A stretch of 64,000 nucleotides of DNA from Candidatus Thorarchaeota archaeon (GCA_011364905.1 RDNZ01000005.1:32001-96000), one strand, 5' to 3'; shown: positions 47,500 to 51,123, counted from the first letter of the stretch. Numbers and translations are program-made. Notes: generated from the sequence alone by a model not told the origin.

Positions 47500-49329
47500 C
47501 TATTCGGATTCCGTTTCGTCATCGTTGGAATCCAGAAGTTTATCGAGTTCTGCGAGTGTTTCTCCATTAAGCGGAAGATATGGAGTATCTTCATCCTCTT
47601 CTTCATCCGCAGTGGTTTTGGATTCGGCTGTCCCTGTACCACCTACCGAGCGATCTAGGGGCCCCAGAAAAGCCTCAAGCTCTTCAAGAGATTCAGCATC
47701 TATCTCACTGGGTTCCTCAGGTTCATGCAAGAAGGGAATAGTTTCATCACTCCCAATTGCCTGAAGCGCTGTGTCAAGGTCCTCGTCAGAAGCATGGTCA
47801 ATCTCCTGCGCAATCATATTGTCAAAATCATCTGCTTCAAGAGCTTCAAAGATGATGTCTTTGGCCATCTGTGCTGCATCCGTAATTTCTTCCACGAGAG
47901 CAGGGCCTAGGTCTTCAGAAGCTACAACGGTGGTTTCCATATCAAGCTCTATTGGTTCATGCTCTTGCACAGATTCAATTGCGGGTCCGGACTCTGGCTC
48001 TTGTTCAATTTGGATGGCTATTTCTTCTGTGGCATCGCCTATTAGAGCCTCTATCTCAATTTCCTCTTCTAACATTGGCTCTTCTACCTCCTCAGCCTCT
48101 GTCACTTCAGATTCCAATTGAGCGGCTTCGACCTCAGGTTCCACTAGTGATGCTTCGGCCTCCTCAGCAGGTGTTTCTTCAATCTCTGCGGGTTCTTCCT
48201 CTACTTCGAACTCCTCTTCTACTATCTCCTCTTCCCCTTCCTCGATAATCTCATATTCCTCAAGATTCTCGATTACGTGGCCTTCTTCATCAACATAGAC
48301 TTCTTCGTATTCTTCTGCCTCTTCGTATTCTTCTTCAGCTTCTGCCTTTTCCACCTCGACCATCTCTGCGTGTGAAGTTTCAGCTATGGCCTCTTCAGTA
48401 GCGGCTTCTGTAAACTTAAGCAGTTCCGAGGCTGGTAGGTCAGGCAGGGCGACTCCCACATATTGGGCAGCAGCATTCATGAGGATTCGAAGCATTTCAT
48501 CTCGGCGTTCTTTGTCAATGGCCACCATTGGATAGGTGGGTATTCCCAGCACCTTTTGGACCACCTCAGGTTTCATCGCATTTGGTTTGTCCTGTTTATT
48601 CGCCATGGCAAAGACTGGGACCTTAGGAGCATCCCTTTTGATCAGTTTCAATATGTCCTTACTAATGATGACATTCCTCAGCGTAGAGTCACACACTAGA
48701 AAGATGACATCGGCACCATGAAAATAAAATCGCCATAAAGTTCTGAAACGCTCTTGCCCTGCAAAGTCCCACAGAACCAGAGAGTAATTACCAAATCGAA
48801 TATTCTCAACAGTTTCCAGATTCAAAGCGATTGTAGGCACATATTGAAGGGGGGGAGTGTCACCAAGGAGCAAATGCAGTGTGGTTGTTTTACCAACACC
48901 TCCTTCCCCAACCAAAGCGATCTTGAGACGAGTAGTCACAGATGGTTCAATTAGAATTGCATAATTCTTTACAGCGCCTTCAATGCCCTCCTTTTTGAAC
49001 TTCGTTCGGAGAGCTTTGAGAGCCAAATCAATTTTCTCGAATGTACTGCCTTCGTCTTCACCCTTATCGGTAACAAAGACCAGAACTGAGTCCTCTATCC
49101 AATCTTTCCCGAGAAACTTATGGTCACCAACCACCAAGGGCAATTCTGAAACTTGACCGGGTTCCGTTCTGAGCTCTTCTCTGGTTGAGATGAATTCATT
49201 CAGCTCATCTCTATCCACATCAACAGGCCAGTATTGAGTCGCAGCGATTATCTGCCGCGTGGAAATGCGAACGAGGAAGGTGTTGTGGATCACTTCAATA
49301 TCACCAGTTTCTATCACATCAAGAGGCAA
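47500..49329 (-). CDS. Arf-related small GTPase fused to an N-terminal longin-like domain and a ~300-aa acidic tail
   Basis: GEGGVGKT, YVPTI, WDFAGQERFRTLWRFYF, NKQD; Glu-rich C-terminal half. Confidence 0.88.
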   Translation of the reverse strand: MPLDVIETGDIEVIHNTFLVRISTRQIIAATQYWPVDVDRDELNEFISTREELRTEPGQVSELPLVVGDHKFLGKDWIEDSVLVFVTDKGEDEGSTFEKIDLALKALRTKFKKEGIEGAVKNYAILIEPSVTTRLKIALVGEGGVGKTTTLHLLLGDTPPLQYVPTIALNLETVENIRFGNYSLVLWDFAGQERFRTLWRFYFHGADVIFLVCDSTLRNVIISKDILKLIKRDAPKVPVFAMANKQDKPNAMKPEVVQKVLGIPTYPMVAIDKERRDEMLRILMNAAAQYVGVALPDLPASELLKFTEAATEEAIAETSHAEMVEVEKAEAEEEYEEAEEYEEVYVDEEGHVIENLEEYEIIEEGEEEIVEEEFEVEEEPAEIEETPAEEAEASLVEPEVEAAQLESEVTEAEEVEEPMLEEEIEIEALIGDATEEIAIQIEQEPESGPAIESVQEHEPIELDMETTVVASEDLGPALVEEITDAAQMAKDIIFEALEADDFDNMIAQEIDHASDEDLDTALQAIGSDETIPFLHEPEEPSEIDAESLEELEAFLGPLDRSVGGTGTAESKTTADEEEDEDTPYLPLNGETLAELDKLLDSNDDETESE

Positions 49330-49440
49330 TGCCCAGAGGCCTTAACGCCAGTAGGTTAATTTCATTGAGTATAGATTAAGATGTCCCGTGTGTATATTTC
49401 GATATTCTGTATATCCATTCTTGGTATTAGAGAAGGAAAA

Positions 49441-49650
49441 CGTTGGAGCGGCGGGTTCGCCGAGGCGAACCTTCCGCATCCGTGGAGCTCTTCGCAACAG
49501 GATGCATGGTAAAATCAAATTACATGCGCAAGACTGCCCAGTTATGGGCAATAGGGACCTAGAACTCACTTTGGGACCGTGTTTGCTGCGAGTTCCTGAC
49601 GGGGGAAGCCATGCAACCCTGTCATGAAGATTCACAGGTCCGAAGGGCAA
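49441..49650. ncRNA. Unassigned highly structured intergenic RNA candidate
   Basis: At least seven contiguous stems, including a multi-way junction closed by GGACCT/AGGTCC; GC-richer than its flanks. Confidence 0.55.
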
Positions 49651-49818
49651 AATACCATATGAAGCTTTCTAGGTTTTCAAAAGGCGTTTCTTAGTCGGAA
49701 TTCACTGGAATTATCGCAGTATTATTAAAGACTGATTGAGGAAATCGCAGAGGTTTGGAACATGCGTTTTCCATTTTAGTTTCAGCGAAGTATGAGTTAT
49801 CAAATCCAGTGATTGCAT

Positions 49819-50958
49819 TCAGCGCGGGAAGTTGTCTCTGAGTAATCGCAGGTGATGATGTACCATTTCCATCTGTTTTGGATCATCAGGTGTTTTCTCA
49901 AGGTCAGTGACGAGTGTTTGCAGGAAATACTCAGGGAAGAAGAGTCTGACACGGATGTCGTTCAAGAGGAACAACCATTTGTCGTAATCACCTGATGCAC
50001 CCTTGCGTCGCTTCTCAGATATTATTCTGAACTTCTTGAGTGTCTGAATCGCAGACTTCAACTCTTTTGGTGGGATGGCGAGGGTCGCTTCTAGTTCAGA
50101 GATATTTACAGGTCTCCTTCGTAATTCACTAAGAGTATCATAGCAGTCAGGGTCTGCCAATACTTGTGCTACGGAAACAGTGTCTTCTGGGGTCTTCTGC
50201 CACTCTGTCAAGAACTCCAGAACTTCGGCTTTATATTCGGCAGCAAGCTCAGGGTCCAAAACACTGCTAGCGGCTTCCATGGCCACTAACGGCGGAGCTC
50301 GGAAAACCTCCAAATCCTTAATCATGAAGACACAGGTTCGACCAATCTCATCAACCCACTCTGTCTTTACAAGACCCAATTCTTCGAAGGGAGCGATTAC
50401 AGAATCAACGCTTACACTTGGTAGTCCTGTAACCATCTTGAGCCACTCCTCAAGCTCCTCCTTAGAGATTCCGCCTTTCCAGAGCTTGGGAAAAACAGCT
50501 CGTGAAATCTCATCAGAAAACAGTCGTGCTAAACGCGACTCATCAGTCATTCCTGCAAGCCGAATGATTCTGCGATAGGTATTGTCGAGCTCAACCTTCA
50601 GTTCAGCATCAGTCATGGCTACGACAGCGTTGGTGAGTGGCGTCACGATTGAGGTTATCGCGGCCTCGTAAGTCTTCGGATCCTCAGAAGGTGTGAGTAA
50701 CAAGGAAACGCAATACTGTTCCTCTTCTCTGACAATCCCTGTGTAATAAGAAGCCACACCATACTCTTCACCCCCAATTCTAACACTTAGTGATGAGAAT
50801 CCAGCTGTGGCGTCACCCATAGCATGTGACGTGAAGATACGCATGATCTCCGTATTGAGATCCTCTCTGTAGTAGTCCGCAAAGTCCGCAGGAACTTTCG
50901 CCTTTAGGACAGCGCCAATCTTTGAGTCCCAGTCTATTAGCAGCATCGCAACGGGCAT
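49819..50958 (-). CDS. Longin/uDENN-like domain plus tandem winged-helix protein (NPRL2-like architecture)
   Basis: N-terminal LLIDWDSKIGAVLKAKVP resembles the uDENN/NPR2 FDxxxGP hairpin; two wHTH-like segments. Confidence 0.7.
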   Translation of the reverse strand: MPVAMLLIDWDSKIGAVLKAKVPADFADYYREDLNTEIMRIFTSHAMGDATAGFSSLSVRIGGEEYGVASYYTGIVREEEQYCVSLLLTPSEDPKTYEAAITSIVTPLTNAVVAMTDAELKVELDNTYRRIIRLAGMTDESRLARLFSDEISRAVFPKLWKGGISKEELEEWLKMVTGLPSVSVDSVIAPFEELGLVKTEWVDEIGRTCVFMIKDLEVFRAPPLVAMEAASSVLDPELAAEYKAEVLEFLTEWQKTPEDTVSVAQVLADPDCYDTLSELRRRPVNISELEATLAIPPKELKSAIQTLKKFRIISEKRRKGASGDYDKWLFLLNDIRVRLFFPEYFLQTLVTDLEKTPDDPKQMEMVHHHLRLLRDNFPR

Positions 50959-51123
50959 TTTACTTCGCTCCCAGTCCCTGGAGTATGGTAAGTATAAAGC
51001 CAGATTATTATTTGATGCATGGGGCCAGCCTAAAAAACCTTGTCTTATTTGGCTCCGACTATTAGAAATATCGAACTGTTCAGCGCTTTTTAGATGGGCC
51101 TTTTTTAAGCCCGAAAAGTAGTT

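Follow-up and report, generated by a model that had tools for sequence, protein, structure and literature searches.

Comparative evidence for a structured non-coding RNA gene beside p379 in one family of Thorarchaeota

By mode of action, the described RNAs that may stand closest to the element reported here are the antisense small RNAs of Firmicutes acting through C-rich loops and the sponge RNAs with a repeated motif. RsaE/RoxS and Staphylococcus RNAIII expose unpaired C-rich motifs (UCCC in RNAIII) in the loops of stable folds, and the RNAs of the RsaE/RoxS type are directed at a G-rich site beside the ribosome-binding site and possess their own promoter and terminator. In the sponges CsrB and RsmZ, one short motif is repeated in loops and single-stranded joints, with a copy number that varies by hairpins. 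Two further groups offer themselves for comparison: orphan RNAs of the raiA, OLE and HEARO type, defined by covariation only and marked by conserved joints, a narrow range and a conserved neighbourhood, and the Sm-class snRNAs, in which a single-stranded U-rich tract is flanked by helices. In the Asgard archaea, the prokaryotes most closely related to eukaryotes, the non-coding RNAs known to us besides the universal set are very few. A literature search found no description of the RNA presented below, and none of any Thorarchaeota non-coding RNA beyond the universal ones.

The RNA element is located in a 489-nt gap between two minus-strand ORFs of a Thorarchaeota genome; the window, i.e. the whole stretch of DNA that was analysed, comprises 64,000 nt. 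One neighbour is an Arf-like GTPase gene (47500-49329, minus strand; 609 aa, Pfam Arf match with E = 6e-21), lying about 105 nt downstream of the RNA on the same strand. The other is an ORF of 379 aa without a Pfam match (49819-50958, minus strand), for which the name p379 was coined in this analysis. The former is a longin-Arf protein and the latter a longin/winged-helix protein, both of the “eukaryotic signature” type. An earlier note, made from the sequence of the window, had placed a structured RNA at 49441-49650; the element itself proved real, with an extent of about 49432-49635, but neither the fold given there nor its view of the strand could be retained. The RNA gene is about 200 nt long and runs on the minus strand; its 5' end probably lies at G 49635 and its 3' end within a U-rich tail, as placed from promoter spacing and the U tract, respectively. 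The element gives a single-copy DNA match in 25 of the 27 species of the genus. Every match is flanked by orthologues of p379 (93-98% identical at the protein level within the genus) and of the Arf-like GTPase (75-92% identity over the N-terminal 300 residues), and the spacers between them fall into two sequence groups, A and B, and one outlier. Five genomes (G028, G031, G062, G064 and G066) also carry 2-3 further p379 paralogues each, with 24-32% identity.

The spacer very probably contains a real minus-strand gene of about 200 nt whose product is a folded non-coding RNA. It folds more stably than shuffled sequences on both strands (MFE z = -4.0 for the plus and -3.2 for the minus strand). 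In the genus alignment A4 (22 sequences), 95.8% of the cells are paired and 37 of 46 pairs have changed on both sides; slid controls give 8-12 such pairs, and none of 500 shuffles reaches the observed values; in the family alignment A6 (21 sequences) the figures are 92.2% and 36 of 46 pairs, against 12-17 in slid controls, both alignments having been fitted to a covariance model and thus leaning towards it. The same helices are visible in sequence-only alignments, with compensatory changes at P1, P2, P3 and P4. It is these compensatory changes, rather than a conserved reading frame, that characterise the spacer. In 25 homologous spacers the longest frames, of 41-149 codons, change from one spacer to the next in strand, frame and length, and no conserved small ORF was found. 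A small protein was also considered for a minus-strand frame of 102 codons that covers the RNA (49342-49650) in frame with the GTPase ORF, from which it is split by a TAA at 49342-49344; since it is not conserved in the relatives, it is regarded as a chance frame and not as an N-terminal extension of the GTPase.

The evidence for the strand, described in the earlier note as mixed, becomes clear once homologues are compared. The minus-strand reading yields 76 G.U cells versus 7 A.C cells, and the RNA has been placed on that strand for this reason. Wobble pairs in an alignment made from sequence only point the same way. U.G pairs on the minus strand, where the plus strand has C.A, occur in the inner arm of P4 in 9 of 15 group-A sequences, in the outer arm of P4 in three group-B sequences, and in P1c of group B. 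The RNAalifold energies calculated per sequence group do not separate the strands (-49.4 vs -49.0; -52.7 vs -50.6), and the strand call rests on wobble pairs and context. A plus-strand RNA with a pseudoknot, GCAUGG/CCAUGC crossing ACGGGG/CCCUGU, was considered and rejected: 1-2 nt is too short for its connecting loops, and when read on the minus strand these bases make up a single uninterrupted helix in which G.U replaces A.C.

In the fold supported by these alignments, a long irregular helix, P1, closes a junction holding the hairpins P2 and P3 and a doubtful P5, and a long 3' hairpin, P4, followed by a U-rich tail, completes the molecule. For the RNA of the window the model structure has -67.6 kcal/mol, compared with an MFE of -78.1, at a base-pair distance of 15. 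The 5' strand of P1 (49609-49635, minus) contains GUG, UCUUC, ACAGG and GCAUGG with internal loops between them; its 3' strand (49482-49509, minus) contains CCAUGC, CCUGU, GAAGA and CAC. As helix 1 of A4, P1 has 95% of its cells paired and 16 of 17 pairs changed on both sides. Its inner part, P1d, covaries (GCAUGG/CCAUGC, GGCGG/CCGCC, GGCACGAA/UUCGUGCC, GCACGG/CCGUGC), and the helix runs on through ACAGG/CCUGU and UCUUC/GAAGA to the 5' end of the RNA. This key long-range pairing, GCATGG (49504-49509) with CCATGC (49609-49614) together with ACAGG/CCTGT, was absent from the earlier fold.

P1 is followed by J1/2 (49597-49608, minus), an unpaired C-rich junction, CUUCCCCCGUCA, whose CCCCGUC is nearly invariant across the family and into which an extra hairpin is inserted in five members of the genus. 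The P2 hairpin (49561-49596, minus; GGAACUCGC/GUGAGUUCU) is paired in 100% of the cells, with a nearly invariant stem GAACUCG/CGAGUUC that is compensated in L028 (GGAAACUC/GAGUUUCC) and in L131 (GAAACCUG/CAGGUUU). The conserved loop motif of P2 is ACACGGUCCCA, and the loop contains a first copy of GGUCCC at 49573-49578. A second copy stands at 49554-49559 in J2/3 (49550-49560, minus; AGGUCCCUAUU), where GUCCC is kept in all genera, being shown in some of them on the loops of extra hairpins. The variable hairpin P3 (49536-49549, minus; GCCCA UAAC UGGGC) has all five of its pairs changed on both sides, with the variants GCCC/GGGC, GCAG/CUGC, UUGC/GCAA, UGUC/GACA and GCCU/AGGC. The tentative P5 (49513-49535, minus) would pair AGUC with GAUU around the invariant CUUGCGCAU box at 49524-49532; it is paired in 95% of the cells within the genus and in 76% across the family, and the latter value makes it doubtful. 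After this box, just 5' of the 3' strand of P1, comes a U-rich tract (49510-49514, minus); all genera have kept this tract as well as CUUGCGCA.

The long 3' hairpin P4 (49445-49481, minus; GGA-U-GCGG-AA-GGUUCGC CUCG GCGAACC-C-G-CCGC-UCC) has 9 of 13 pairs changed on both sides and carries an extension hairpin in some genera. The tail (49432-49444, minus) consists of AAC, GUUUU and a pyrimidine-rich run, probably a termination tract. Nearly invariant unpaired parts of the molecule are CCCCGUC, ACACGGUCCCA, GGUCCC, CUUGCGCA, the U tract and ACGGAUG, and the unpaired invariant bases number about 60. Two tertiary pairings, one of CUUGCGCAU with the 5' strand of P4 and one of CCGU in J1/2 with ACGG of the linker, received no support from covariation, L025 providing a counter-example, and both were left out of the model. 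A K-turn was looked for by eye; no 3-nt bulge with tandem G.A pairs was seen.

Three of the eight stems proposed in the earlier note thus survive the comparison with homologues. GGTTCGC/GCGAACC with its extension GCGG/CCGC corresponds to P4, TGCCCA/TGGGCA to P3 and GAACTC/GAGTTC to P2, all three being kept with compensatory changes. The others are not conserved: GCATCC/GGATGC, GCATGGTAA/TTACATGC, the supposedly junction-closing GGACCT/AGGTCC, the trivial TGAA/TTCA, and TGACGGGG/CCCTGTCA, which could form on the true strand only with C.A mismatches and is in competition with P1.

Distribution was followed with two covariance models. R1 was built on a structure set by hand for nine sequences of group B, and recovers the copies of group A, on the minus strand, with E values around 1e-14 (49438-49629 in the window, minus strand, 59.5 bits). 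R2, derived from the 22-sequence genus alignment, matches the window at 49438-49630 (minus strand, 167.4 bits) and gives one full-length copy in 49 of the 61 genomes of the family, representing 12 of 16 genera. R2 matched none of 124 genomes from 26 other Asgard families, a result to be read with the model's origin in a single genus, as weak relatives outside the family could be missed. Five “negative” genomes were sampled; four of them were searched unfiltered beside p379, and diverged copies were seen in three. Among 80 loci fetched with p379, all from metagenome-assembled genomes of Candidatus Thorarchaeota (or labelled Promethearchaeota), the RNA stands just downstream on the same strand in 69, most misses being truncated contigs; the RNA is missing from a lineage whose p379 has only 65% identity. 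By these searches the RNA appears as one copy per genome throughout one Asgard (Thor) family. In one genus, g32, the copy is degenerate (L131 3694-3902, plus strand, identical to L155): it has a perfect 12-bp P1 and a compensated P2, but shows GGUUCC in place of GGUCCC and lacks both CCCCGUC and the usual promoter box.

The search of Rfam 15 (4227 models), as recommended beforehand, gave no family over the element in the window, either at the gathering threshold or at E<=10, and the only match in the window at the gathering threshold is a tRNA elsewhere. Eight diverse homologues compared with Rfam gave nothing relevant at E<=1. The earlier suggestion of a novel non-coding RNA agrees with this result, with the strong covariation and with the presence of SRP and RNase P RNAs at other loci in relatives. 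The RNA is uncatalogued, and its covariation-supported structure and its strand, together with a probable promoter and terminator, suffice for the definition of an Rfam-style family. As a side observation, a weak SNORD110-like C/D-box match at 49780-49845 (plus strand; 16.5 bits vs a gathering score of 64, E = 3) was treated as a chance hit.

The RNA is probably transcribed independently, from its own promoter, and would end in the U-rich tract after P4. A BRE/TATA-like box, CTAGAAAGCTTCATATG, occupies 49656-49672 (minus) and is placed upstream of the first base of P1, G 49635, by 20 nt in group A, 22 nt in group B and 21 nt in L026. This spacing is fixed in all members of the genus and the sequence of the spacer varies. 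The conserved box of 15-17 nt also precedes the RNA in other genera, the structured part starting 21-24 nt after it. It most likely represents a BRE plus a TATA element, with a start about 21 nt downstream; alternatively, an A/T-rich element about 10 nt further upstream may be the promoter, which would add a 20-nt leader to the RNA. At the other end, C(C/U)AAC follows P4 in all genera and is succeeded by a U- or pyrimidine-rich tract. Upstream of the promoter box, two direct ATCGCAG repeats (CUGCGAU on the minus strand) occur in the window at 49713-49719 and 49744-49750 and are kept within the genus, while in one further genus a GCGATTCATGAATCGC palindrome occupies this place; these elements may be an operator. 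Operator-like repeats at this position were not consistently conserved across genera.

The association of the RNA with p379 holds in 20 of 20 family loci. The RNA is always on the p379 strand and always downstream, typically 110-250 nt away and up to about 900 nt. The GTPase gene falls inside the 1.5-kb flank of the RNA in 18 of 20 loci; in genus g9 it is not within 1.5 kb, and genera g6 and g10 have an ORF of about 310 aa, encoded on the other strand, between the RNA and the GTPase gene (L028 495-1415, plus, in g6; L027 1698-2642, minus, in g10). Since the RNA stays with p379 and the downstream neighbour varies, it travels with p379 and not with the GTPase gene.

A possible clue to the function of the RNA is found in the p379 leader. 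In the window, a AGGGACUGGGAG box lies 10-21 nt before the ATG (50968-50979, minus), and is proposed as a pairing target of the RNA. A box of the form (A/U)GGGAC(C/U)..GGAG, situated 10-24 nt before the p379 ATG, is recognisable in 45 of 48 loci, five of them with a shortened core, and in 40 of 48 loci it complements GGUCCC next to the GGAG, which is Shine-Dalgarno-like. In the genome to which the window belongs, the box did not prove to be a general motif. On the side of the RNA, GGUCCC is present in 2-4 copies (P2 loop, J2/3, extra hairpins), without exception unpaired and on the RNA strand; in every genus the unpaired C-rich motifs GGUCCC and CCCCGUC lie outside the covarying helices. The longest complement between RNA and leader, 7-13 nt, falls at the box in most genomes, as exemplified by UUCUAGUCCCUA with UAGGGACUGGGA, and genus g32 has lost both GGUCCC from its RNA and the box from its leader. 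The repeated, unpaired GGUCCC and the conserved complementary GGGAC(C/U) beside GGAG suggest antisense control.

We tentatively favour, at somewhat less than even confidence, a reading in which the exposed GGUCCC pairs with the p379 leader to control p379. According to this scheme, a minus-strand RNA of about 200 nt would be transcribed from the BRE/TATA-like box and end in the U-rich tract after P4. P1 and the hairpins would hold the C-rich single strands open in junctions and loops, allowing GGUCCC to pair with the GGGAC(C/U) that abuts the GGAG ribosome-binding site of the leader. Such pairing would change the translation of p379 or the stability of its mRNA, and the conserved U-rich tract could recruit an Lsm/SmAP chaperone.

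Several points speak against this reading. When the bases flanking the RNA motifs and those flanking the leader box were tested for co-variation, each box class being represented once, the cognate mean was 8.77 nt and the non-cognate mean 8.37 nt (1532 of 20000 permutations, not significant). The duplex energy of the whole molecule with the leader was no better than with shuffled leaders (113 of 500). In one g5 genome the motifs of the RNA are retained, yet the 80 nt that precede the called start contain no box. The GGGACC box could also lie in promoter DNA rather than in the p379 mRNA, and the RNA, with its approximately 60 invariant unpaired bases, is more elaborate than a simple antisense seed needs.

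Two side observations concern the leader and the seed. In the p379 leader of the window (50968-50990, minus), CUCC pairs with GGAG around the 7-nt loop AGGGACU; this hairpin would hide the Shine-Dalgarno-like GGAG and display the GGGAC box. Other genera also keep an (A)GCUCC element, some 25-30 nt upstream of GGAG. A strict motif-cluster scan of the genome that carries the window (G000) for a second RNA with the same seed returned about chance numbers; one site on its contig C89 (4838-4907, minus) has GGUCCC, AGUCCCUAG and GGUCCCUUU within 70 nt, and may be a second RNA or a chance occurrence.

The exposed motifs may serve a protein instead of an mRNA. As the scaffold of a ribonucleoprotein particle or as a protein decoy, the RNA would offer the GGUCCC loops, the CUUGCGCAU box and the U tract as binding sites for the winged helix of p379 or for Lsm/SmAP. 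The repetition of one motif in 2-4 copies over loops and junctions, with extra hairpins adding copies in some genera, speaks for this reading, as do the many unpaired bases that are invariant across genera, the conserved U-rich tract and the tight linkage to p379. In the AlphaFold model of p379, the sole confident part is a winged helix at residues ~270-335; the remainder is poor (mean pLDDT 52). Two sources automatically name the protein “ArsR family”, its profile matches to SmtB and TFIIE are weak, and it is otherwise an Asgard protein without assigned function. With a winged helix and an ArsR-like name in p379, GGGACC/GGTCCC could itself be a protein site, and together with the SmtB and TFIIE matches these features make protein binding of the motif a serious rival. 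A pure protein-site model does not predict that the leader of the neighbouring gene should contain an exact complement to the motif, and the winged helix is the only part of p379 whose model can be relied upon. On balance, a scaffold or sponge is considered possible but rather unlikely.

Antisense pairing could also take place in cis, if the element were a structured and perhaps processed 3' UTR of the p379 mRNA, with GGUCCC motifs reaching back to the 5' leader of their own transcript. The constant position downstream of p379 on the same strand, and the complementarity of the motifs to the p379 leader, would fit such an arrangement, and in the window there is no long T tract from the p379 stop to the RNA. 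However, the BRE/TATA-like box keeps its distance from the first helix in all genera, T5-T7 tracts occur between the p379 stop and this box in several of them, and the sequence separating p379 from the RNA shows little other conservation and extends to about 800-880 nt in some genera. These features favour a separate transcription unit and make a 3' UTR distinctly unlikely.

If the GGUCCC/GGGACC complementarity were a coincidence, the element could be a catalytic or ligand-binding RNA acting in trans. Conserved joining regions and variable helices with insertions are typical of RNAs with a three-dimensional fold, and the leader co-variation test was not significant, as such a coincidence would have it. 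On the other hand, the RNA is unlike any known family of ribozymes or riboswitches, its sequence offers no logic of a cleavage site or a ligand, and no tertiary pairing is supported by covariation. We regard this explanation as quite improbable.

Still less probable, and very much so, is a cis-regulatory leader or riboswitch of the Arf-like GTPase gene, the second function that the earlier note had put forward. The gene lies close by on the same strand, the junction fold with its conserved joining regions is aptamer-like, and the last hairpin with the U tract could be an expression platform. But the GTPase gene has a TATA-like box of its own, AAATATACACAC, outside the RNA (49388-49400, minus), in a conserved block between the RNA 3' end and the GTPase start, and other genera have clearer TATA boxes at the same place. 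Together with the box that precedes the RNA itself, the linkage to p379, the intervening ORF of g6 and g10 and the distant GTPase gene of g9, this argues that the RNA is not a GTPase leader.

A divergent copy of a universal RNA, which the lack of any SRP or RNase P RNA match in the genome's own assembly might suggest, has a negligible probability and is excluded because the relatives carry both RNAs elsewhere: Archaea_SRP (RF01857) matches over its full length at another locus in 26 of the 27 other species of the genus and RNaseP_arch (RF00373) in 24 of 27 with up to 170 bits, always on contigs other than that of the RNA element. Neither model matches in the window at E<=10, in agreement with the earlier note. 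The gap in this assembly, which is 81% complete, is most likely an assembly gap.

Returning to the preferred antisense reading, a wider proposal would join it with protein binding: the RNA and p379 would form a dedicated regulatory pair of Thorarchaeota, in which the GGUCCC loops both pair with the leader and bind p379 or an Lsm ring. As a composite this is unlikely. If true, a eukaryote-like longin/winged-helix GTPase regulator would be controlled by, or would assemble with, a structured RNA of a class unseen elsewhere, and an RNA-based layer of control would act on a GTPase module of the membrane-trafficking type in Asgard archaea. The RNA lies between two genes of the “eukaryotic signature” type and has a concrete, testable link to one of them; should the link to p379 hold, it would offer these archaea's first point of entry into the control of modules of this kind by RNA. 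For annotation, the result improves the description of a spacer of about 490 nt that is now blank or miscalled as an ORF.

Compared with the known systems, the RNA shares with RsaE/RoxS-type sRNAs the C-rich motifs displayed in the loops of a stable fold, the G-rich site beside a ribosome-binding site, and an own promoter and terminator, which are predicted here. There are major differences: no sequence or structure homology exists (Rfam negative), the host is an archaeon, and the molecule has roughly double the length, a junction of several helices and many bases in that junction that do not vary. One candidate target is seen, the adjacent gene, with predicted pairing. With CsrB and RsmZ it has in common the repetition of a short motif in loops and joints and a copy number varying by hairpins; in contrast to these sponges, it has only 2-4 copies, of GGUCCC and not of GGA, and a rigid conserved core instead of a string of hairpins. 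We know of no CsrA-like partner in archaea. The U-rich tract (GAUUUUA), single-stranded between helices and constant in character across genera, resembles that of Sm-class snRNAs, a loose comparison already drawn in the earlier note, but is situated inside a junction and not between terminal hairpins; no snRNA model matches, and a spliceosomal function is not implied for the RNA. The definition by covariation, the conserved joints, the narrow range and the conserved neighbourhood are those of the orphan RNAs raiA, OLE and HEARO, and alongside these families, to none of which it belongs (Rfam negative), the RNA stands as one confined to a single Asgard family.
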